Positions 42,995 to 63,983 of a DNA stretch of 64,000 bases are shown here, piece by piece; position 1 is the first letter of the stretch, and each line of letters starts with the position of its first letter. The notes beneath the pieces are model-generated. The model did not search any database. It had not been told where the DNA came from and saw only the letters and a program-made list of their open reading frames with translations. The position numbers and the translations under genes were made by a program. Source of the DNA: an uncultured Oscillospiraceae bacterium (GTDB lineage Bacteria > Bacillota > Clostridia > Oscillospirales > Acutalibacteraceae); contig UQAZ01000002.1 of assembly GCA_900539165.1 (NCBI GenBank), positions 13,559-77,558 of the forward strand. The letters run 5' to 3'.

Positions 42995-44173
42995 TTACAT
43001 ATACTTTTTAATTTCGTCAACCTTATTTGTTCTTTCCCAAGAAACATCAAGGTCCTCTCTGCCCATATGACCGTAAGCGGCAACATTCTTATAAATCGGC
43101 TTTCTCAAGTCGAGAGCCTTAATAATTGCATAAGGGCGAAGGTCAAATACCTTATTAACGATTTCGCTGATTTCGTCATCAGACTTCTTACCTGTGCCGA
43201 AAGTGTCAACCATAATTGATACAGGCTTTGCAACGCCGATAGCGTAAGCAAGTTCAACCTCGCACTTATCGGCGAGACCTGCTGCAACGATATTCTTAGC
43301 AACCCATCTTGCGGCATATGCTGCGGAACGGTCAACCTTTGTAGGGTCCTTACCCGAGAAAGCACCGCCGCCGTGACGAGCGTATCCGCCATATGTATCA
43401 ACGATAATCTTTCTGCCGGTAAGACCCGAATCACCCATAGGTCCGCCGATAACAAAACGGCCTGTCGGATTAACATAAAATACGGTATCCTTGTCCATAA
43501 GCTCTGCGGGAACTGTTGTCTTAATTACCTTTTCGATAATATCTTTTCTGAGTTGCTCGAGTTCAACATCTGCGCTGTGCTGTGATGAAACTACAACAGC
43601 TGTAACCTTAACCGGCTTGCCGTCATCGTATTCAACAGTAACCTGAGTTTTACCGTCTGAGTAGAGATAAGGAAGAGTTCCGTTTTCTCTAACCTCTGTA
43701 AGCTTCAACGCAAGCTTATGAGCAAGAGAAATAGGAAGAGGCATAAGCTCCTCGGTCTCATTGCAAGCATAACCGAACATCATACCCTGGTCGCCTGCAC
43801 CGTTAAGGTTGTCCTCGTCGTCCTCATTATTTTTAAGTTCATATGACTTATCAACGCCCATAGCAATATCGGGAGACTGATGGTCAAGAGCAGTCAAAAC
43901 GGCACAGGTATTGCCGTCAAAGCCTTTCTTTGCATCATCATAACCGATGTCAATTATAGTCTTACGAACTATTGATGTAATATCAACATCCGCCTTAGTT
44001 GTGATTTCGCCCATTACGAGAACCTGACCCGTTGTGCAGGTGGTTTCGCAAGCGACACGGCTCATTGGGTCCTGCTCGAGCATTGCGTCGAGAATTGCGT
44101 CAGAAATCTGGTCGCAAATTTTATCGGGATGTCCCTTAGTTACAGATTCACTTGTAAACAAAAACTTTGACAT
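42995..44173 (-). CDS. metK: S-adenosylmethionine synthetase
   Basis: The N-terminal [24 protein letters not shown] is the MetK signature, with GGGAFSGKD present. 392 aa. Confidence 0.95.
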
Positions 44174-44493: not shown

Positions 44494-46056
44494 ATGGCAA
44501 AGAAAACAGTATTCCTTACCGGCGGTACCGGTAACATGGGTTGGGCTGCTGTACAGGAAATGCTCAAGCATCCAAATGAAATCAACATTAAGATGCTCGC
44601 AAGAAAAAGCCCTAAGAACGAAGAAAAGCTCAAGGACCTTATGGCTAAGCCAAATGTTCAAATCGTATGGGGTGACCTCGGCGACTATGATTCAATTCTT
44701 GAGGGTGTAACAGGCTCTGACTATGTTCTTCATATCGGCGGTATGGTATCTCCGACAGCTGACTGGAAGCCATACAGAACTCAAAAGACAAACATCGGCG
44801 CTGCTCAGAACATCTGTAAGGCAGTTTTGGCTCAGCCAAATGCTGATGACATTAAGGTTGCATACATCGGTACTGTTGCTGAAACAGGCGGCAGAAACTA
44901 TCCTATCCACTGGGGCAGATGCGGTGACCCGATTAAAATTTCTATCTATGACCACTATGCAATTTCTAAGGCAGTTGCAGAGCGTGTATTCGTTGAAAGC
45001 GGTATCAAGAACTGGGTTGTAATGCGTCAGTCAGGTATCCTTTATCCAAACATTCTCAAGAATATGGATCCAATTATGTTCCACGTACCGATTAACGGTG
45101 TTCTTGAGTGGTGTACTGTTGAGGATTCAGGTCGTCTTATGTGCAACCTTGTTCTCGAGGACGAAAAAGGCACACTCGATAACGGCTTTTGGAATCACTT
45201 CTTCAACATCGGTTCAGGTGAGCAGTACAGAATTTCTAACTATGAATTTGAGTGTCTCCTTCTCGGTACTCTCGGTCTTGCAGGCCCTGAAAAGCTCTTC
45301 GAGCCTAACTGGTTTATCACAAAGAACTTCCACGGTCAGTTCTATGCTGACGGTGACAAGCTTGAAGAATTCCTCCACTTCAGAGAGAACCTCCCTGTTC
45401 AGGATTACTTCAACAGACTTGCTGATCATGTTGAATTCTACTTCAAAATACCAAGATACCTTCCAAAGAATCTTGTTGCTGCTTGCGCTAAGCCATTCAT
45501 GAAGAAGATTGCTATGACTAAAGACTTCGGTACTCTTGACTGGGTTGCAACAAAGAATCAAACAAGACTCTCTGCTTACTACGGTACATATGAGGATTGG
45601 ACTAAGATTCCTTCAAAGTGGGAAGACTTTGAAATCAGAAAGTTCAACAAGAAGACTGAGGACGCTGAAAACTACAAGCTTGACCACGGTTATGATGAGA
45701 CAAAGCCTGAATCAGAGCTTGACATCGAGGATATGAAGCAGGCTGCTAAGTTCCGTGGCGGTGAGTGCCTCAGCGAAACAATGACTAAGGGCGATATGGC
45801 TACAAAGCTCAAGTGGAAGTGCGGTTACTGCGGTGCTGAATTTGAGGCTTCACCTGCTCTTATTCTTCTCGGCGGTCACTGGTGTCCTGAATGCTACATT
45901 CCGCAGAAGCAGTGGGATTACGACAACATCGCAAGAACAAATCCGTTCTTCGCACAGGTTTGGTATCCAAGCCACACCAAGGAAGAGACAAACGTTTACA
46001 AGTTTGACGATTTGTTCCAGATTGACGGCGTTAAGTGGGACGACATCAAGAGATAA
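44494..46056 (+). CDS. NAD(P)-binding SDR/epimerase-fold protein with a C-terminal ~250-aa extension ending in a Cys4 zinc-ribbon; function unknown
   Basis: Rossmann motif VFLTGGTGNMG and catalytic YAISK (YxxxK). A long C-terminal region then carries KWKCGYCG...HWCPECY. AGGAGG RBS. Codon usage is strongly biased towards optimal codons (gct, ggt, cgt, aag, ctc), unlike most neighbours. Confidence 0.6.
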   Translation: MAKKTVFLTGGTGNMGWAAVQEMLKHPNEINIKMLARKSPKNEEKLKDLMAKPNVQIVWGDLGDYDSILEGVTGSDYVLHIGGMVSPTADWKPYRTQKTNIGAAQNICKAVLAQPNADDIKVAYIGTVAETGGRNYPIHWGRCGDPIKISIYDHYAISKAVAERVFVESGIKNWVVMRQSGILYPNILKNMDPIMFHVPINGVLEWCTVEDSGRLMCNLVLEDEKGTLDNGFWNHFFNIGSGEQYRISNYEFECLLLGTLGLAGPEKLFEPNWFITKNFHGQFYADGDKLEEFLHFRENLPVQDYFNRLADHVEFYFKIPRYLPKNLVAACAKPFMKKIAMTKDFGTLDWVATKNQTRLSAYYGTYEDWTKIPSKWEDFEIRKFNKKTEDAENYKLDHGYDETKPESELDIEDMKQAAKFRGGECLSETMTKGDMATKLKWKCGYCGAEFEASPALILLGGHWCPECYIPQKQWDYDNIARTNPFFAQVWYPSHTKEETNVYKFDDLFQIDGVKWDDIKR

Positions 46057-54980: not shown

Positions 54981-57917
54981 TTACAAATCTCTTTTTATTC
55001 CGAGAGTTACAATTTCAAACGGCGAATAATCAATAACATCCGTCTTATATTGCTCTCGTTCAAGCATATCAAGAACGGTAGCTTCAAACGGAAGCTTAAT
55101 ACTTCCTCGAGAGCCATTCTGCTCACTAAGTCTAAGAACAATCATTGTGCCGTCCTCGCTGAATTTTGCCGCCTGAAGAAACAATCCTTCAAATTTCTCA
55201 AGCGACCATTCAGCATCGGTTTTAACAAGCGGAACATTATATTCCAATGATATATTATTAATTCTTGCGGACACAGCATCTTTTTCGTGCGGCAAAATCA
55301 TATAGCAAAAGCTGTGCTGTCCCATATCGGAAGTGACATCGGGTCTGACGGTTGCACGAAGCAGAGACAGCGACATCGTATTATCCTTAAAGCCTACACC
55401 GTATTTGCAATCATTAATCAACGCAATACCGCCGTCGGTTTCTGACAGGTCGCACCAATTATGATGGCAAACCTCAAAACGAGCCTGCTGCCACGATGTA
55501 TTGGTATGGGTATCACGCTCTATATAGCCTGCGCTTATATCGCAAAGGGCTTTACGAGTAAGAACATTACACGCAAACTCTGCCTTTGCAAGTCTGTGTT
55601 TTTCGTGCCAATCAACATTATTTTCCACCTCAATGCCCCTGCTCCTCTTAAAGAAGCGAACGAACATAGTCCAGGTGGATTTTTCTGTTTTAAGCACAGT
55701 CTTGAGTTCTAAGCATTCATTATCCGCACGACTGAAATCAAGCGGAGACGACACGGTGATTTCTGCCTGTTTATCCTTATAATTAGGCAAAATATCCCAC
55801 GCATCATAATTACCCGGCTTATCAACATAGAGTTTAAGCTTATTAAACTCGCCCTTAGCCCAATCACGGCAAAGTTCCTTATCAAACAAACAGGCAAAGG
55901 AGCCGTCGGGATTAAGCTCTGCTCTATAATACGGAGTTTCGACCACGCCGTCGGCAAAGCTGTACCAGTCGCACTCGCCTTTTGAAGCTCTGAGTCTTTT
56001 TGATTCAAGGGCGGGAATATTAGGACAAATCCAATTACCCTTTTTACCGAAACGCACCGAGCTTCCGTTTTTGGAAGGAACAAAGGTAAGCGAGGTTCTG
56101 TCAAAATTAAGAGTATTAAAATAGAAATCACCTGTGCCGATAAGGCTGTCGAGCTGTGATTCTATATATTCATAATCCTTAACAGCATCCTCATATACGG
56201 GATGAATATGCGAGCCGGGGATAATATCGTGAAACTGATTAACCAAAAATCTTTTATAAAGTTCCGTGATTTTATCCTGATTATTTTCATTTTTCATCAC
56301 ACCGAGCATTTCTGCGGTGCGGAATTTATATTCAAGGCGTCTGTTTATCTTTTTAAGTTCAGCCTTTGTAGTGAATGTGCCACGGTGCATTTCGAGATAA
56401 AGTTCACCGTCCCAAACCTGAAGATTTTTATTATTCTTTAGGTTTTTCTCCAAAAATTCGGCAGCGCCCATATGCTCACATTTCGGCATAACGGAGAGCT
56501 TTTCAAAGCGGTGCATAAGCTCAATCATTTCGTCGGTGCAGCCTGAGCCGCCGTCACCGTAGCCAAACATATTCATAGTTTGACCGCCTAAATCCTTATC
56601 TATGTACGCTTCCCAATTTTCCTGAATTTGAGACGGAGCATTCCAAGTGATAAAATGAGTGGGCGGAACGCAGGCAAGAAGCTCGCTTCCGTCAATACCT
56701 CGCCAAATGAAGTTATTATGCGGAAAACGATTTGTGTCATTCCATGTTGACATCTTATTAGATACGAAATAATCCACACCGCACTTTTTGAAAATCTGCG
56801 GCAAAATCCAACTATTACCGAAAACATCGGGAAGCCAAGCATTATTTACGAAAGAGCCGAACATTCTCTTATAAGTCATCTGACCGTAAAGGCATTGACG
56901 AATGAGGCTTTCGGCAGACGGAATGTTACAGTCAGGTTCTACATACATAGCTCCGACAGGTTCAAACTGACCGTTCTTAACCTTTTGCTGAAGTTCGCTG
57001 AAAACATCGGGATAGTATTTTTCCAATGTTTCATAAATATACGGTTGAGTATGGGTATACTTAAAGTCAGAGTACCTATCCATAAGGCGAAGCTGAATTA
57101 ACACGGTACGCAAATTCTTTTGAACAGCGTGAATTCTGCGCCAATAGTAGGCTATATCAAGATGAGAATGGGCAATAAAAGCGACATCACCGCTACCCTT
57201 ATATGTATCGTTTGCATAAATTACTTCGTCCACATATTTCTTTGCATCAGCCAAGCCGTCAAGGTCGTCGGATTCAAAGTCGATAAGAGACATCGCCTTA
57301 TCAAGCTCACGATTAAGAAAAGCTCTGTAATCCTCATTAAAAAGCTCTGATTTTGCCACATCCAAAAGAAGTTCAAAGTCCCACACAAGCTCCTGCACGC
57401 TGTGATTAACGGTGCAAAGATAAGCGCCCTCAAAAATTTGGCGGCAGCCTCTTACGCGCAGGCTTTCGGGATTACGCTCATCATCGGGTTTTGAGCGATT
57501 ATAACCCATCATTTCGATATGAAGCGTATCTGCGGTATCAACATACGGCGACAAAAGCATACGCTCTCTGTTTGGGTCAACTCCGCCGACATATTTACCG
57601 TTAATCTTAACACAGATTTCAGCGGCGGTTTTCAGCGACAGCCAAAGTTCCTTATCTCTAAGCTCGGCAGGCACGTCAACATCAGCCTTAATGAATGCCG
57701 TGCCGTCGGGAGTAAAATACATATCTCCCCTATTTAGAGGGCGGTAATCGTCGCTGTAATATTCAAATTCCATTTCGGATACCTGACGGGCATCCCTAAT
57801 CATTAAATTTTTAATTTCCCATTTTGAGGAATAAATATGCCTTTTAAGCCAGCCAAAGCGTAAGTCTGTCCATTCTTCGGGACGCATTGAGCGTCTGACA
57901 ACCTTAATATGAGCCAT
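54981..57917 (-). CDS. Glycoside hydrolase family 38 alpha-mannosidase (cytoplasmic; no signal peptide)
   Basis: The GH38 catalytic N-domain motif AHSHLDIAYYW (H-x-H-x-D...W), plus the central and C-terminal beta-sandwich domains. 978 aa. Confidence 0.85.
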   Translation of the reverse strand: MAHIKVVRRSMRPEEWTDLRFGWLKRHIYSSKWEIKNLMIRDARQVSEMEFEYYSDDYRPLNRGDMYFTPDGTAFIKADVDVPAELRDKELWLSLKTAAEICVKINGKYVGGVDPNRERMLLSPYVDTADTLHIEMMGYNRSKPDDERNPESLRVRGCRQIFEGAYLCTVNHSVQELVWDFELLLDVAKSELFNEDYRAFLNRELDKAMSLIDFESDDLDGLADAKKYVDEVIYANDTYKGSGDVAFIAHSHLDIAYYWRRIHAVQKNLRTVLIQLRLMDRYSDFKYTHTQPYIYETLEKYYPDVFSELQQKVKNGQFEPVGAMYVEPDCNIPSAESLIRQCLYGQMTYKRMFGSFVNNAWLPDVFGNSWILPQIFKKCGVDYFVSNKMSTWNDTNRFPHNNFIWRGIDGSELLACVPPTHFITWNAPSQIQENWEAYIDKDLGGQTMNMFGYGDGGSGCTDEMIELMHRFEKLSVMPKCEHMGAAEFLEKNLKNNKNLQVWDGELYLEMHRGTFTTKAELKKINRRLEYKFRTAEMLGVMKNENNQDKITELYKRFLVNQFHDIIPGSHIHPVYEDAVKDYEYIESQLDSLIGTGDFYFNTLNFDRTSLTFVPSKNGSSVRFGKKGNWICPNIPALESKRLRASKGECDWYSFADGVVETPYYRAELNPDGSFACLFDKELCRDWAKGEFNKLKLYVDKPGNYDAWDILPNYKDKQAEITVSSPLDFSRADNECLELKTVLKTEKSTWTMFVRFFKRSRGIEVENNVDWHEKHRLAKAEFACNVLTRKALCDISAGYIERDTHTNTSWQQARFEVCHHNWCDLSETDGGIALINDCKYGVGFKDNTMSLSLLRATVRPDVTSDMGQHSFCYMILPHEKDAVSARINNISLEYNVPLVKTDAEWSLEKFEGLFLQAAKFSEDGTMIVLRLSEQNGSRGSIKLPFEATVLDMLEREQYKTDVIDYSPFEIVTLGIKRDL

Positions 57918-57929
57918 CGTTTTTTCTCC

Positions 57930-58184
57930 TTAAATATCCTGAAAATACGGTTTCTTGCGAATAGGATTAACTGTCAAAGATTTATGACAATCATTTTTAA
58001 TTTGCTCCTCAATCCAAGCAACGCACCTATCCAAAATCAAGCATTTTGAACATTCGCCACGAAAAATCAGGCTAAGCTCATTCCCGTCAAGCGAGGAAAA
58101 CTCTACCCATCCCCCGTCACCTTGAATTTTAGGTTGTAAAACATTTTCTACATAGGTTTTAATATCATTCATACTAAGCCTCAC
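57930..58184 (-). CDS. NifU-like (Nfu-type) domain protein
   Basis: 84 aa with GGWVEF...L.L.F.GEC..C, which resembles the NifU C-terminal CxxC scaffold. Overlaps the phosphoglucomutase stop. Confidence 0.65.
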   Translation of the reverse strand: MRLSMNDIKTYVENVLQPKIQGDGGWVEFSSLDGNELSLIFRGECSKCLILDRCVAWIEEQIKNDCHKSLTVNPIRKKPYFQDI

Positions 58185-59857
58185 GCATTAATTACAGAAG
58201 AAATAATATTCCTCAAGGCATCAAGACGAGTTTTCGCCTGAGCCTTGTTTTCATCAACGATTGAATAGTAAACCTTTATCTTTGGCTCGGTGCCACTTGG
58301 TCTGACAGCCATCCAAGAGCCGTCGGTAAAAATATACTTTAGCACATTTTCTTTTGGCAAATCGCCTACACCGACAGAATAATCAATAACTCTCTCGACT
58401 CCGTCAAAAGCATTGTTCCCCTTTGCACGAAATTCGCTCATAAGGCGAGAAATCTTTTCAGCACCGTCTTTACCCTTTAGGACAAAGGAATCGAGGTAAT
58501 CGAGATAATAACCGTATTCATCATAAATTTCGTTAATTCCGTCAACAAGCGTCTTGCCCTGATTTTTATACCAAGCTGCCATTTCGCAAATAAGCAGAGA
58601 GGAAACAACTGCATCCTTATCACGAGTATGAGTGCCGATAAGATAACCGTAGCTTTCCTCATAGCCGATAACAAATTCCTGCTCGCCTGTTCTTTCGTAC
58701 TTATTAATCTTATCGCCGATATACTTAAAGCCTGTAAGCGTTTCATCGACACGCAAGCCGTATTTTCTTCCTATATTTGCACCCAAATCCGATGTTACGA
58801 TAGTCTTAACAAGTGTAGATTTAGAATTAAGGCTGTCCTTTCTCATAGTCAAGACAAAATTAACAAGCAACGCACCCGTTTGATTTCCCGTGAGTAAAAT
58901 ATATTCACCGTTTTTATCTCTGACAGCAACACCCACTCTGTCGCAATCGGGGTCTGTGCCGAGTACAATATCCGCATTTTTCTTTTTAGCAATCTCTATG
59001 CCCAAAGTAAGAGCCTGTCTGTCCTCGGGATTAGGCGATTTAACCGTCGGGAAATTACCGTCAGGGTCTTCCTGCTCCTTTACAACATAAACAATCTTAC
59101 CCTCAAGTACCTTTCTGACAGGGACATTACCCGTGCCGTGAAGCGGAGTATATACAATTTTAAGCTCGCTGTGGTTATCATAGACGGACTGAGTTTTTAC
59201 AGCCTTGATGAATTCTTCAAAAAGTTCCTCGTAAACCCCAACAATCATTCCGTTTTTAATATATTCTTCTACATTCAACACGCCGTCATAAATCTTTGAG
59301 TAATCGTCTACGGCTTCGATATATGACATTGCTTCTTTTGCGTCATCGGTACAAAGCTGGCAACCTGTATTATCATAAACCTTATATCCGTTATATTCCT
59401 TTGGATTATGAGACGCCGTAATCATAACGCCTGCATTACAATGCAAATATCTCGTTGCAAAGGAAAGCATAGGAACAGGAACTTTTTGAAGATAAGCAAA
59501 AACTTTAATGCCTTGAGAAGCAAACACTCTTGCAGCATCCCACTCAAAGCCGTCAGAATTAAGCCTTGTATCGCAAGCAATAGCAACGCTTATCTCGCCG
59601 TCGTATTTATTTTTCAAATATTTTGCAAGCCCGAGGGTTGCCTTACCCACGGTGTACTCATTCATACGATTTGTACCTGCACCCATAATGCCACGCAAGC
59701 CGCCTGTTCCGAATGCCAAATCCTTATAAAATCTATCCTCAATTTCCTTTTCGTCAGTTAGAGACGAAAGTTCATTTCGTGTGTTTTCGTCAAAAGTCAG
59801 CCAATGGCTGTATTTTTCATTTACTGTCATACCGCACCTCCGAGAAATATATTTCAT
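58181..59857 (-). CDS. Phosphoglucomutase/phosphomannomutase (alpha-D-phosphohexomutase)
   Basis: Active-site serine loop TASHNPKEYNGYK, a metal-binding DPDCDR and the GEESYG sugar-binding loop. 558 aa. Confidence 0.9.
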   Translation of the reverse strand: MKYISRRCGMTVNEKYSHWLTFDENTRNELSSLTDEKEIEDRFYKDLAFGTGGLRGIMGAGTNRMNEYTVGKATLGLAKYLKNKYDGEISVAIACDTRLNSDGFEWDAARVFASQGIKVFAYLQKVPVPMLSFATRYLHCNAGVMITASHNPKEYNGYKVYDNTGCQLCTDDAKEAMSYIEAVDDYSKIYDGVLNVEEYIKNGMIVGVYEELFEEFIKAVKTQSVYDNHSELKIVYTPLHGTGNVPVRKVLEGKIVYVVKEQEDPDGNFPTVKSPNPEDRQALTLGIEIAKKKNADIVLGTDPDCDRVGVAVRDKNGEYILLTGNQTGALLVNFVLTMRKDSLNSKSTLVKTIVTSDLGANIGRKYGLRVDETLTGFKYIGDKINKYERTGEQEFVIGYEESYGYLIGTHTRDKDAVVSSLLICEMAAWYKNQGKTLVDGINEIYDEYGYYLDYLDSFVLKGKDGAEKISRLMSEFRAKGNNAFDGVERVIDYSVGVGDLPKENVLKYIFTDGSWMAVRPSGTEPKIKVYYSIVDENKAQAKTRLDALRNIISSVINA

Positions 59858-59865
59858 TATATAAC

Positions 59866-59893
59866 AAAAGAGGTGAAAAAATCCACCTCTTTT
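59866..59893 (-). terminator. Hairpin terminator downstream of the transporter gene
   Basis: A 10-bp stem AAAAGAGGTG / CACCTCTTTT with an 8-nt loop. The U-tract is partly within the stem. Confidence 0.4.
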
Positions 59894-59917
59894 ACTTAAA
59901 AATTATATTTTTTTCAA

Positions 59918-62476
59918 TTATTTCTTAGAAGCTTTCTTAGCAGCCTTTTCTGCCTTGCGGCGTTCAAGCTCTGCCTTTTCTTCCTCAACAAGTCTTGCTT
60001 CCTCTTCAGCCTCTTTTGCTTCAGTTATGGCAACATTTTCCTTAGCCTGCTCATAGAGAGCCTCGATTTCGTCGAAGTGCTTGAAGTTTTCATTCTGATT
60101 AAGAAGCTTCTTAGCGTCAACATAAGGCTTAGCTGCACGGTTAAACTGTGCGTGCTTATCCATTTCGTCCTTAGAAAGCTTACGAACCTGCTTACGCTCC
60201 TCGCTGTACTTCTTAATCTCTGCCTTGAGTCTCTTGTACTCTTCGGTGTCTTTGTCCTTCTTAGCGATGTGGCTAAGCTTTGCAAGCTCTGCAATCTTAT
60301 CGTCAAGCTCGTCCTCTTGATTAAAGTACTGCTCGATTGTGTCGAAGCTAAGTTCCTCAAATGTATTTGTTGAGCCAAAGAACTTGATATATGACTTAAC
60401 AGCAGAAATCTGTGATTTAGCAAGCTCGATATAGAACTTTCTGATTTCCTTTTCTTCCTCTGTATGGTTAGGCATAGCCTTTGACTTAGCAAGCTGAGCC
60501 TTTGCCTCATCGAGAGAAGTGTTCTTAATTCCGTCAAGACCTGCCTCAAAAATCTTTGTGTAAGCCTCAAGCTTATGCTTACCTAAGTTAGAATCGAACT
60601 TATTAAGCTCGTCAACAACAAACTTTGAAACTTCGATTTCTTCGTTATATTCGAGAGCCTCTCTGTAAGCCTTTTTAGCTTCCTTGCGTTCCTTCTTGTC
60701 GGAAACGTTTTTATACATAGCCTTGCTTACTTCTTTAGGAGTAGCAACAGCCATTTCTTTAGCATTATTAACAAGGTCAATCATCTCTACGATGTCCTTG
60801 TCCTTCATAGCGTTATTACCGTAGTCCTCGAATACTGCACGAACCTTGAGTACACGAACATAAGACTTTTGCTTCTTCTCTGTCAAGTCATAGAAGAAGA
60901 ACGGAATAACATTAAGAGTAGCACCGAGAGCTGCAACAAGTACCAATACCTTGAGCAACGGAAGCAAGATTCCGTTTACATCATAAAGAGCAGATGAAGC
61001 ATTGGTAAAGTTATTCTGACCGTTTGCAAGCTGGTCGGTAAGCATCTGGGAAATTGTCTGATTTGAACCCGGGAGCATTCTTGACATCAAAGCCGGGTTG
61101 CTTGTAACCTCAGCGGCTCTTGCAGCTGTCATACCGTACTTCTCCTGAAGTGCAGGAAGAACACCTGCTGTGATAAGAGTGATAACGCTGCCGATAGCTG
61201 CCACAGCGGCAAACATACCGTCGATACGCTCGCCTGTCTTATACTGCTGATAGTCACGAATATCTGCCTGAATAGACGGGTTAAGAATATGAGCAAATGC
61301 ACCGACGATACCGTTAAGGTAAAGACAAGCAAGAACTGCCCAAATTACATAGTTTTTAATGTTTCCGGCTTCGTTGGCAGAACCCATAAAGAACGGATAC
61401 ATACAAAGAATAAATGCGATGTTAAAGAGGTTTGTAACAATCTGTACCTTTTTCTTACCCCATTTTCTGATACAGAACGGAGCAAGAAGCATACCCCAAA
61501 GGGAAGCGTTACCGTATACGGTAGTAATGATAGCGTATGTACCCTGTGAGCAAGCACCGCCATAGTTACAAATCCAATAAAGAATATTAGAATAGGCTGT
61601 TTCAAGGAAGCCGATCCAAGAAGCAAGAGAAATAATCCAGAAATACTTATTCTTAGCTACTTCTCTGAGCGCGTCTGTAAACTTAATTTGAATAACGTGA
61701 GTCTTTGCCTGAATAATCTTCTCCTGTGTATTTGCATAAACGATAAATACAAGCAATGAGCCGATTACACCGATAACAGGGAATGCAATTCTGTAAACCT
61801 TAATATCGGTTTGGTTAGTGTGAAGTAAACCTGCAATAATAGGAATAATGAGGTTATACACTGTTGGGCCGAAAGAATAAACAACGCTCTTGATAGAAGC
61901 AACATCGGCACGCTCCTGTGAGTTAGGAGAAAGTACATGGATAAGATTTTCGTAAGCGTCATAGAAGAAGTTATAGAAGAACTGAAGTGCGATATTAAAT
62001 GCAAGAATTACTACGCACTTAGCAACATACTGAGCTTCTCTGCCGAAAATCTGTCCGTCGCCAACGATGAGATGAAGCTTATCGTACGGGAACCATACCA
62101 TCGTTACAAAAATAACGGCACAAGGAATACCCATCCTTAAAAGATACGGTCTGTACTTACCTGCTTTATTTCGGGTGTTATCGACAATGTTTGCACGAAC
62201 ACCTGTAAGCGGGATACCCGAAAGAATTGCGATAACATACAAAATGTACATATCTGTGAGACCGATACCAATAGTACCGGACAAGAATACGTTTGTTGCA
62301 CCCAAGATACAAGGGTAACTCATACAAACGATTAAATAAGCGCCTATACCGCCAAAAGCGTATGAGGCAATTTCCTTAAAGGACATATATCTGCCCTTTG
62401 CCGGCTTTTTCCAATAGTACTTAACATTATTAATTAATGTTGAAGCCTTTTCGGAAAGCCCTGATTTTTCAGCCAT
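59918..62476 (-). CDS. GPH-family (MFS) glycoside:cation symporter with a ~310-aa K/E-rich coiled-coil C-terminal cytoplasmic extension
   Basis: N-terminal MSFKEIASYAFGGIGAYL and 12 TM helices typical of MelB/GPH transporters, ending near ...NVIPFFFYDLTEKK. A continuous in-frame ~310-aa tail (KKAYREALEYNEEIE...EAKEAEEEARLVEEEKAELERRKAEKAAKKASKK) has no TM segment. Start reassigned to MAEKSG (62476), behind an AAGGAG RBS. Strongly optimised codon usage. Confidence 0.7.
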   Translation of the reverse strand: MAEKSGLSEKASTLINNVKYYWKKPAKGRYMSFKEIASYAFGGIGAYLIVCMSYPCILGATNVFLSGTIGIGLTDMYILYVIAILSGIPLTGVRANIVDNTRNKAGKYRPYLLRMGIPCAVIFVTMVWFPYDKLHLIVGDGQIFGREAQYVAKCVVILAFNIALQFFYNFFYDAYENLIHVLSPNSQERADVASIKSVVYSFGPTVYNLIIPIIAGLLHTNQTDIKVYRIAFPVIGVIGSLLVFIVYANTQEKIIQAKTHVIQIKFTDALREVAKNKYFWIISLASWIGFLETAYSNILYWICNYGGACSQGTYAIITTVYGNASLWGMLLAPFCIRKWGKKKVQIVTNLFNIAFILCMYPFFMGSANEAGNIKNYVIWAVLACLYLNGIVGAFAHILNPSIQADIRDYQQYKTGERIDGMFAAVAAIGSVITLITAGVLPALQEKYGMTAARAAEVTSNPALMSRMLPGSNQTISQMLTDQLANGQNNFTNASSALYDVNGILLPLLKVLVLVAALGATLNVIPFFFYDLTEKKQKSYVRVLKVRAVFEDYGNNAMKDKDIVEMIDLVNNAKEMAVATPKEVSKAMYKNVSDKKERKEAKKAYREALEYNEEIEVSKFVVDELNKFDSNLGKHKLEAYTKIFEAGLDGIKNTSLDEAKAQLAKSKAMPNHTEEEKEIRKFYIELAKSQISAVKSYIKFFGSTNTFEELSFDTIEQYFNQEDELDDKIAELAKLSHIAKKDKDTEEYKRLKAEIKKYSEERKQVRKLSKDEMDKHAQFNRAAKPYVDAKKLLNQNENFKHFDEIEALYEQAKENVAITEAKEAEEEARLVEEEKAELERRKAEKAAKKASKK

Positions 62477-62506
62477 AAAATCTACTCCTTTATAAATGCT
62501 TTGATA

Positions 62507-62535
62507 ATCATAACACAAATTGTTATTAATTACAA
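62507..62535 (-). promoter_or_regulatory. Sigma-A-type promoter for the transporter gene
   Basis: On the minus strand: TTGTAA (62535-62530), a 17-nt spacer, TATGAT (62512-62507), about 25 nt upstream of the RBS/ATG at 62476. Confidence 0.4.
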
Positions 62536-62690
62536 GAAAATTAGCAAAAATTACAAGATTTTATATCATTTGACATATCAATGTAATTTTTGCCGTTAAA
62601 ATTCCCGATTTTGCACAGGCAAGAGTCGGGACAGAACAAAGCTGATTTCACAAGAAATGCGAAACCAGCCTTTTATTTAATTACATTTTA

Positions 62691-63983
62691 TCAGCCGTAG
62701 AAGCCGATTGATTTGATATGAGGATTTGAACGGCTCTGACGAATTACAAACACAGCGCCTGTGTAAGTACCTCTGAGTTTAACAATCTTCTTAGCTCCGA
62801 TAACAGTACCGGAATAAACTTTTTTGTATCTTCCGCTTGCCTTTTTAAGGTAAAGGTCAAACTTTTCAACTCTCTGAGACTTACTGATGTCCTCTTGAAC
62901 AATGAAGTATTTAAGCTTTGACGGATTTGCAAACTTAAATTCAAGGTATCCCTGATCATCCTTCAGTTCGCCGAACGATTGCTCGATAATCGGATTTGCT
63001 GTAATTGATTCAATCTGCTGACCGAGCGCCTTGAGCCTTGACACATCCTTAGAGCAGATAACGCCCTTATCTGTTGGCGGAACATTAAGGAGCAATGTGC
63101 AGTTATTGCCGACCGACTTCAAGTAAATATTGAAAAGCTTTCTTACGCTCTTAACTGTTTTATCGTCTTTTTTATGATAAAACCAACCCTTACGGATAGA
63201 AACATCGACCTCAGCAGGATACCAAGCAAGATAAGCATTTTTCTCAAGTACATTACGAGAACCCAAATCCTCATCCATAGTATCAACCTTTTGGAGTCTG
63301 CCTGCGTCGCCCTCTGAGGACTGACTGTTTTTCTCGGTGGATTCACATTCCCTGAGAGATGCCGGAACGACGCTGTATTCATTTTTACGAGCCTTACCCG
63401 CCTCATTGCCTACCCAGCGAATATCCTCACCGCAGATAGCGATATTTGCATTTGGCTGAAGCCTATGAATAGTCTCATAATATCTTTTCCAATCATATGT
63501 AAAGGCTTTTGCGTTAGCTCCTTTTGCACCGTCGAACCAAACCTCGAAAATCTTGCCGTAGTTTGTTAAAAGTTCGGTAAGTTGATTAACGAAATAATCA
63601 TTATACTCCGGCGTTGCGTAACACGGCTCGTGCATATCCCACGGAGAAAGATAAACGCCGAAATCAATATCGTTTACATAGCAGGCATCGGAAACAGCCT
63701 TAACAATATCGGTATGAAGTTTAGTATTCATAACATTAAAATCGGTATACTTAGTATCCCAGAGACAGAAACCGTCGTGATGCTTACATGTAAGAATAAC
63801 GCCCGTAACACCTGCCGCTTTAACAGCCTTAACCCACTGCTCGGGATTAATCTTTGTAATATCGAAATCCTTAACAGTTTCGGTTGCTGCACCCCACTCA
63901 CGGTCGTTAGCGGTATTCATGCCGAAATGGAAGAATGCGTAAAATGGTTTTTCCTGAAGGGTGAGTTGATGTTCGTTAGGCAC
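62691..63983 (-). CDS. Glycoside hydrolase family 29 alpha-L-fucosidase (cytoplasmic)
   Basis: GH29 signatures: FYAFFHFGMNT (vs FG.FIHWG), the catalytic-nucleophile region TCKHHDGFCLWDT, WFDGA, and a C-terminal beta-sandwich. 430 aa, no signal peptide. Confidence 0.85.
   Translation of the reverse strand: MPNEHQLTLQEKPFYAFFHFGMNTANDREWGAATETVKDFDITKINPEQWVKAVKAAGVTGVILTCKHHDGFCLWDTKYTDFNVMNTKLHTDIVKAVSDACYVNDIDFGVYLSPWDMHEPCYATPEYNDYFVNQLTELLTNYGKIFEVWFDGAKGANAKAFTYDWKRYYETIHRLQPNANIAICGEDIRWVGNEAGKARKNEYSVVPASLRECESTEKNSQSSEGDAGRLQKVDTMDEDLGSRNVLEKNAYLAWYPAEVDVSIRKGWFYHKKDDKTVKSVRKLFNIYLKSVGNNCTLLLNVPPTDKGVICSKDVSRLKALGQQIESITANPIIEQSFGELKDDQGYLEFKFANPSKLKYFIVQEDISKSQRVEKFDLYLKKASGRYKKVYSGTVIGAKKIVKLRGTYTGAVFVIRQSRSNPHIKSIGFYG

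Follow-up and report, generated by a model that had tools for sequence, protein, structure and literature searches.

A widespread, conserved and unannotated C-terminal helical domain on GPH-type carriers of Oscillospirales and Christensenellaceae

The window analyzed here, a stretch of 64,000 nucleotides of contig UQAZ01000002.1 from an uncultured Oscillospiraceae bacterium, carries on its minus strand a gene for an 852-aa transporter of the GPH family, in which the membrane core continues in frame into a C-terminal tail of 323 residues. We found that this tail is a widespread, conserved and unannotated cytoplasmic domain. Its recognition is new; the sequences themselves are already public under generic names, and the product of the window gene corresponds to WP_177917785.1, recorded as "MFS transporter [uncultured Eubacterium sp.]". 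In window numbering, the gene and the parts of its product are as follows (TM, transmembrane helix; ORF, open reading frame; AF2, AlphaFold2; dN/dS, ratio of nonsynonymous to synonymous substitution rates):

59918..62476, minus strand: complete coding sequence of the 852-aa tail-bearing GPH transporter, stop codon included (ORF list)
60890..62476, minus strand: membrane core, aa 1-529, 12-TM MFS_2/GPH fold (Pfam, Foldseek, AF2 model)
60971..61156, minus strand: extracellular insertion between TM11 and TM12, aa 441-502 (hydropathy, short helices in the AF2 model)
60047..60889, minus strand: all-alpha cytoplasmic domain predicted to be folded, aa 530-810, of no known family (AF2, identity, dN/dS)
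60818..60889, minus strand: juxtamembrane turn and basic amphipathic helix, aa 530-553, YDLTEKKQKSYVRVLKVRAVFEDYG (residue conservation)
59921..60046, minus strand: charged terminal helix, aa 811-852, a net-acidic E/K/R/A stretch followed by a polybasic tip RRKAEKAAKKASKK (helix composition)

The fusion of core and tail is real and obligate. Independent ENA, Logan and NCBI assemblies contained the identical 852-aa protein on at least six contigs, and the full-length homologs with 67-99% identity to it, 847-858 aa in length, numbered more than 100. In the best 80 species-level loci, taken from at least 560 places in species-representative genomes, a single uninterrupted ORF of 783-880 aa was found in 73, the other seven being cut by a contig end; all 73 complete loci thus have core and tail in one frame, as the original prediction had read them. 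That prediction had named two findings that would speak against its reading, namely homologs ending at ~aa 545 with a separate downstream tail ORF, and an indel at the junction, and neither was encountered. Among the ORFs of at least 380 aa in 88 loci, 93 consisted of core plus tail and two were ordinary tailless GPH paralogs (457 and 471 aa). The stop-to-stop ORFs of at least 120 aa, scanned separately, included no internal tail-only ORF, and the sole tail-only ORF was located at a contig edge. Stand-alone tail proteins were considered and rejected, as the short matches of a tail-only search either keep TM11/TM12 or are fragments. The tail-only query listed only proteins of up to 563 aa and none of the ~850-aa homologs sharing the identical tail; the word index of this search seems not to reach far into long proteins, and the missing long matches should not be over-read.

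Two observations could point to an artefact, namely a frameshift, two genes fused by the assembly, or an internal start from which a separate downstream protein is made. A sigma-70-like TTGACA-18-TATGTT sits exactly at the core/tail junction (60886-60857), and many database entries are short, N-truncated calls. However, the TTGACA simply represents codons L531-T532 and is present in only 16 of 74 relatives, so that we rejected an internal promoter or start at this place; the first internal methionine is residue 557, and a start there would remove the best-conserved helix of the tail. The short entries that we inspected in their locus context (P0140, P0219 and P0207) were frameshift splits inside the core, never at the junction, in error-prone assemblies in which other genes were also split. 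With the in-frame ORFs of independent assemblies and the selection on the tail reading frame described below, an artefact is vanishingly improbable.

The tail has been conserved as a protein. For 74 species-level full-length proteins, mean pairwise identity was 65% in the core, 55% in aa 530-810 and 49% in aa 811-852. Compared with seven close orthologs, dN/dS was 0.05-0.12 for the folded part of the tail and 0.08-0.11 for the core, and by this measure the tail domain is under purifying selection as strong as that on the core. Since these low ratios come together with conservation at the at least 560 genomic places mentioned above, the feature lies far beyond chance. The best-conserved part is the juxtamembrane segment aa 530-553, where the motif Y-D-x-x-E-x-K-Q-K...L..R..F-E-D-Y-x-N directly follows TM12 and residues Y529, D530, E533, K535, Q536, L543, R546, F549, E550, D551, Y552 and N554 are invariant or nearly so. 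The junction of TM12 with the tail is rigid and conserved and has no linker; it consists of an invariant five-residue turn (YDxxE). Further (near-)invariant motifs are distributed over the tail: K.AKK.Y.....N..I...FV..EL.KF, GL, AK..P....K..R, F..ED and FNRAA....A...Q..N....EI...Y..AK.

The AF2 model of the tail alone, built on an alignment of 87 sequences, was all-alpha and confident (mean predicted local distance difference test score, pLDDT, 92.9; predicted template modeling score, pTM, 0.78), and comprised 13 helices (4-44 residues each) with loops between them. The full-length model had a pLDDT of 80 and a pTM of 0.68, and the pLDDT of its tail stayed at ~80-90. Most helices of the tail are amphipathic, with an occupancy of heptad positions a and d by hydrophobic residues of 0.4-0.75, as is expected of an intramolecular antiparallel bundle. 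No internal repeats or spectrin-like duplication were detected in the tail (hhalign probabilities below 5%). We conclude that the tail, as modeled, is a conserved folded helical domain with an accessory charged helix and not the coiled coil of ~310 residues that had been predicted from its composition; the 13-helix fold, the invariant motifs, the lack of repeats and the low a/d occupancy of the terminal helix (see below) all contradict the latter. Other parts of that description were correct: aa 530-852 contain no hydrophobic segment, are rich in lysine and glutamate (16.6% and 15.6%), and end in a lysine- and alanine-rich stretch (RRKAEKAAKKASKK). The tail begins at ~aa 530, however, rather than at ~aa 545.

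The terminal helix (residues 808-851 in the model) differs from the remainder of the tail. It contains 55% charged and 14% large hydrophobic residues, and its best a/d occupancy is only 0.23. With seven i/i+4 pairs of opposite charge and a predicted helical structure, it has the sequence features of single alpha-helices of the ER/K type, and it looks like such a single helix with a basic tip. The polybasic tip (at least six K/R in the last 15 aa) was found in 61 of the 74 relatives, and in one subgroup of Acutalibacteraceae the protein stops directly after the folded domain and has no charged extension. In divergent family members the length of the tail varies from ~180 to 395 aa. The juxtamembrane segment is retained in nearly all of them, and FNRAAKPY is likewise kept by most of the divergent members examined; the middle segment, in contrast, is frequently missing.

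The tail did not match any described domain in our searches. The best E-values were 0.12 in Pfam, 1.5 in NCBIfam and 0.26 in BFVD. Searches of PDB sequences with the tail as a single sequence (phmmer) and as a profile gave nothing better than E = 0.12, and Foldseek against PDB returned only generic BAR-like bundles (best E = 0.29, TM-score ~0.2). A PTS_EIIA domain was absent from the Pfam and NCBIfam matches of the tail even at E-values up to 10, the precomputed Pfam lists of all full-length homologs contained only MFS_2 and MFS_1, and a full-text literature search found no description of the tail. A large and widespread family that is annotated merely as "MFS transporter" shares an undescribed, strongly constrained cytoplasmic domain, which merits a Pfam/DUF (domain of unknown function) entry.

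To determine how far the domain is spread, we scanned one genome per GTDB species with the tail alignment, which gave the at least 560 places referred to above. A profile search of 1.84 billion representative sequences returned 585 matches at E≤1e-3 and 155 at E≤1e-30; its full-length matches were 690-857 aa long and always had the tail after the membrane core. The tail family comprises at least 155 clusters at 50% identity. It occurs in Oscillospirales and Christensenellaceae, the named sources being Eubacterium spp., Acutalibacteraceae, Ruminococcaceae, Oscillospiraceae, Candidatus Fimenecus, Christensenellaceae and "Clostridia bacterium". In the cultured type strain Eubacterium coprostanoligenes ATCC 51222, the ortholog (WP_159443397.1/UniProt A0A1T4LG02) is 90% identical in the core and 84% in the tail. 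Genomes often have several copies: tandem pairs of tail-bearing GPH genes were seen at six loci (L014, L035, L040, L041, L045 and L074), and the metagenome-assembled genome JAIDLO01 has two separate tail loci (L044 and L066).

All divergent members have an MFS_2 core, the only exceptions being chimeric-looking singletons. In four singleton predicted proteins (P0367, P0375, P0339 and P0320), a tail fragment is combined with GH26 and TrkH fragments (P0367), a GH30 fragment (P0375) or an internally deleted MFS_2. They most likely come from chimeric or misassembled metagenome contigs, and we rejected P0367 and P0375 as evidence for the tail on non-GPH proteins.

At a few loci (L026, L036, L043 and L077 versus L049, L064 and L080), the identities of core and tail to the window protein were decoupled: some had 77% identity in the core with 47-51% in the tail, and others 52-54% in the core with 55-58% in the tail. 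Two of them, L043 and L077 (core identity 50-54%), are still located upstream of the PGM-NifU-GH38 genes that follow the transporter gene in the window. The decoupling could result from exchange of tails between paralogs, or from replacement of a paralog at a fixed site.

The membrane core, which had been predicted to be a MelB-like GPH protein with 12 TM helices, proved to be just that. Pfam MFS_2 (PF13347) matched aa 62-439 (E=1.4e-32; 113.3 bits, the cut-off being 27), 12 TM helices, with TM12 at ~aa 500-528, were seen in both the hydropathy profile and the AF2 model, and Foldseek against PDB with the core found MelB (7l16) as the top match (E=7.4e-7; TM-score 0.74, normalized to the target), followed by MFSD2A. 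The score with the NCBIfam model TIGR00792 (gph) was 101.6 bits, under the trusted cut-off of 231.35 bits, and the transporter is a member of a divergent subfamily outside this classical model. We regard this subfamily as lineage-specific and as consisting of putative GPH-type sugar:cation symporters of gut Clostridia. Sequence searches of PDB chains with the core and with the full-length family profile found no solved relative and no match to a MelB sequence from which equivalents of the MelB cation-site residues (Asp55, Asn58, Asp59 and Thr121) could be read. Because the Foldseek alignments of the core to MelB and MFSD2A end at ~520 columns, there is no solved relative with such a tail. The ~60-aa insertion between TM11 and TM12, for which three short helices are predicted, shows less conservation than any other region (47% mean pairwise identity in the 74 proteins), and the ~805-aa paralogs have a shorter version of it. 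An extracellular lid or a substrate-capture element would be possible functions of this insertion.

The window protein shares the 12-TM fold with the MelB/GPH family (TC 2.A.2, MFS_2), in which MelB is its best structural match, and its loop 2-3 sequence DNTRNKAGKYRPY resembles the GPH signature GK[FY][KR]P[WY]. In contrast to MelB, which ends soon after TM12 (~470 aa), the window protein has 323 additional cytoplasmic residues and the 60-aa insertion. Such a long charged tail had been called unusual for a prokaryotic MFS transporter. This holds for its size, whereas C-terminal regulatory domains as such have precedents on MFS, GPH and BCCT carriers, namely in ProP, LacS and BetP (PMC10710835). 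In carriers of the LacS/RafP type, a GPH core is fused in frame to a C-terminal cytoplasmic regulatory domain of more than 150 aa (PMC10710835). With a GPH core and an in-frame C-terminal domain, these are the closest architectural precedent for the window protein. The LacS domain has the beta-sandwich EIIA fold of the phosphotransferase system (PTS) and is phosphorylated by HPr, while the window tail is predicted to be all-alpha, has no match to the EIIA-Glc-like PTS domain with its phosphorylatable His (PF00358) and is about twice as long. In the MFS osmolyte/H+ symporter ProP and in BetP, a charged helical cytoplasmic C-terminal extension tunes activity via lipids, loops or a neighboring protomer (PMC10710835). 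We consider these proteins to be the closest mechanistic precedent for the tail. Their extensions, of ~50-60 residues, are single helices or a single antiparallel coiled coil. In comparison, the window tail is a multi-helix domain of ~280 aa with sequence-specific motifs, and it is located on a sugar-type GPH core rather than on an osmolyte carrier.

The tail domain, folded and strongly constrained, was found only on GPH cores, whatever the genes around them. A cytoplasmic location is suggested by the 12-TM topology and the positive-inside rule: basic residues are located at the N-terminus, in loops 2-3, 6-7, 8-9 and 10-11, and in the helix after TM12. From the precedents above, we infer that the tail docks on the core and has a regulatory role, and we tentatively propose it as an intramolecular regulatory or latch module of the carrier, an interpretation that is plausible although still somewhat short of probable. 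The invariant YDxxE turn after TM12 would fix the basic amphipathic helix at the membrane interface. The bundle of long antiparallel helices (~280 residues) would lie beneath the carrier's cytoplasmic gate. Its invariant acidic and polar motifs (FEDYGN, YNEEIEIS, F..ED, FNRAAKPY and Q.ENY) may contact the basic cytoplasmic loops, and the bundle may bias the alternation of the carrier between inward- and outward-facing states when ionic strength, a metabolite, a partner protein or another cytoplasmic cue changes. The charged terminal helix (~40 residues, present in most members) and its polybasic tip may provide an accessory electrostatic contact to the membrane or to a partner.

In a broader form of this proposal, which is possible but doubtful, secondary sugar carriers would have, in the ~280-aa domain, a sensor or regulatory module of a new class on their cytoplasmic side. 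Specific to Clostridia and comparable to the LacS EIIA or ProP/BetP domains, it would couple the uptake of host or diet glycans to a signal from inside the cell, which could be ionic strength, a metabolite, a nucleotide second messenger or a global regulator protein. Abundant gut Oscillospirales carry it on multiple, presumably highly expressed paralogs in one genome. To our knowledge, hardly anything is known of how non-model gut Firmicutes regulate their sugar carriers post-translationally. A regulatory role of the domain would mean a new way for abundant gut Clostridia to control the entry of glycans; with a structural role, the domain would still be useful as a marker and would probably represent a new fold. 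The ortholog of the cultured E. coprostanoligenes strain makes this question directly testable.

As an alternative, the long helices and/or the terminal helix could pair between protomers in a ProP-like manner and thereby dimerize, cluster or localize the carriers, with the tip binding anionic lipids. Several helices of 27-44 residues do have a hydrophobic a/d occupancy of 0.6-0.75, a polybasic end is present in 61 of the 74 proteins, and the basic juxtamembrane helix is conserved. The top Foldseek matches of the tail in PDB are BAR/I-BAR-type bundles, which are dimeric and membrane-binding and, like the tail, elongated with long helices (E ~0.3, prob up to 0.75). These matches are not significant, however (E≥0.29, TM-score ~0.2, root-mean-square deviation 18-34 Å), and there was no sign of dimerization or curvature sensing. 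In the confident and self-consistent monomer model, the internal helices with high a/d occupancy are packed within the molecule, which suggests that their amphipathic faces are already satisfied there, and the terminal helix has no hydrophobic seam and is absent in some subgroups. We consider oligomerization or clustering unlikely.

It is also conceivable that the domain is a passive appendage that only serves folding, insertion or stability of the divergent GPH core, for instance by offsetting its unusual loops, and has no part in signaling. The obligate link to the core with no free tails, the correlation between core and tail identities across the relatives (r=0.66) and the lack of a recognizable ligand-binding or signaling fold are consistent with this possibility. 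Nevertheless, ~280 residues with many invariant charged or polar positions and a dN/dS as low as that of the core would be a high cost for such a function, and conventional GPH paralogs of 457-471 aa work without a tail in the same genomes. We consider this explanation quite unlikely and return to the regulatory or latch module as the preferred one, for which the surroundings of the gene provide further arguments.

The neighboring genes and the hairpins bracketing the transporter gene (approximate coordinates for the latter) are:

62691-63983: GH29 fucosidase, upstream neighbor
62638..62672, minus strand: terminator-like hairpin after the GH29 gene, before the 214-bp leader of the transporter gene (fold energy)
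59866..59894, minus strand: terminator-like hairpin with a T-run just 3' of the transporter stop codon (centroid fold)
58181-59857: PGM/PMM, downstream neighbor
57930-58184, minus strand: NifU-like ORF, 84 aa (PF01106)
54981-57917: GH38 alpha-mannosidase

These neighbors suggest that the carrier in the window probably imports an alpha-mannoside or an oligosaccharide derived from host glycans. The original prediction proposed, besides scaffolding or regulation, that the tail might tether the transporter to the neighboring GH38 and GH29 enzymes, and in a more general form the tail could be a docking platform that recruits GH38, GH29, kinases or mutases to the transporter exit for substrate channeling. 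In the 80 loci defined above, the PGM-NifU-GH38 genes follow the transporter gene in 13-15, including the two loci with only 50-54% core identity (L043 and L077), GH29 precedes it in seven, and GH95, GH30 or AraC-type regulator genes are found near others. The invariant polar motifs on the surface of the tail could also be an interface for another protein. However, the largest paralog group (25-28 of the 80 loci) has the same tail motifs next to unrelated housekeeping genes (aminotransferase-V, CdaA, YbbR, radical-SAM and SIR2), and no universally conserved partner gene was found in the 80 loci, the most frequent neighbor family being present in 28. A conserved tail is hard to reconcile with variable enzyme partners, unless the partner is a common unlinked protein. 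Because the same motifs occur in all neighborhood contexts, a specific GH38/GH29 tether is unlikely, and the differences between the neighborhoods of the paralogs argue for a function intrinsic to the transporter.

The organization of the window gene adds to this. Its downstream hairpin had a centroid fold energy of -16.4 kcal/mol (z=-4.65; equalled in 0 of 200 shuffles) and the upstream one -20.4 kcal/mol (z=-5.61); a consensus terminator scan had missed both. With hairpins on both sides, the transporter gene is probably its own transcription unit and thus monocistronic, despite the apparent glycan-utilization cluster around it. Taken with the unrelated surroundings of the paralogs, this speaks against the proposed tether, and we regard a docking platform for neighboring enzymes as very unlikely.

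Two features of the neighborhoods may be mentioned. The NifU-like ORF, wedged between PGM/PMM and GH38 and retained in 13 of the 80 loci, is an odd partner for a mannosidase. In the largest paralog group (L005/L006 and other loci, e.g., L021, L031, L051, L056 and L086), the transporter gene is directly upstream of aminotransferase-V, followed by cdaA (diadenylate cyclase) and ybbR. This adjacency may simply be inherited synteny, but cyclic di-AMP is known to regulate transporters.

The unbroken minus-strand ORF of the transporter can begin at 62518 (TTG) or 62476 (ATG) and ends with the stop codon at 59918-59920 (ORF list). We took the ATG as the start, since it is preceded by a Shine-Dalgarno sequence at a spacing of 8 nt and the resulting length of 852 aa agrees with that of database homologs; the E. 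coprostanoligenes ortholog has the same arrangement.

62484..62490, minus strand: Shine-Dalgarno sequence AAAGGAG, 8 nt before the ATG at 62476 (read in the sequence)

Codon usage of the gene had been described as highly optimized. Indeed, with GroES, GroEL and PGK of the same species as the reference, its codon adaptation index (CAI) was 0.695, rank 3 of the 45 ORFs in the window. The CAI was 0.65 for the core and 0.77 for the tail, compared with 0.51-0.60 for the neighboring genes, and with both parts this high, nothing indicates that the tail was acquired recently from a foreign source. Only the ORFs at 44494-46056 (plus strand) and 42995-44173 (minus strand) rank above the gene, with a CAI of 0.78 and 0.70, respectively.

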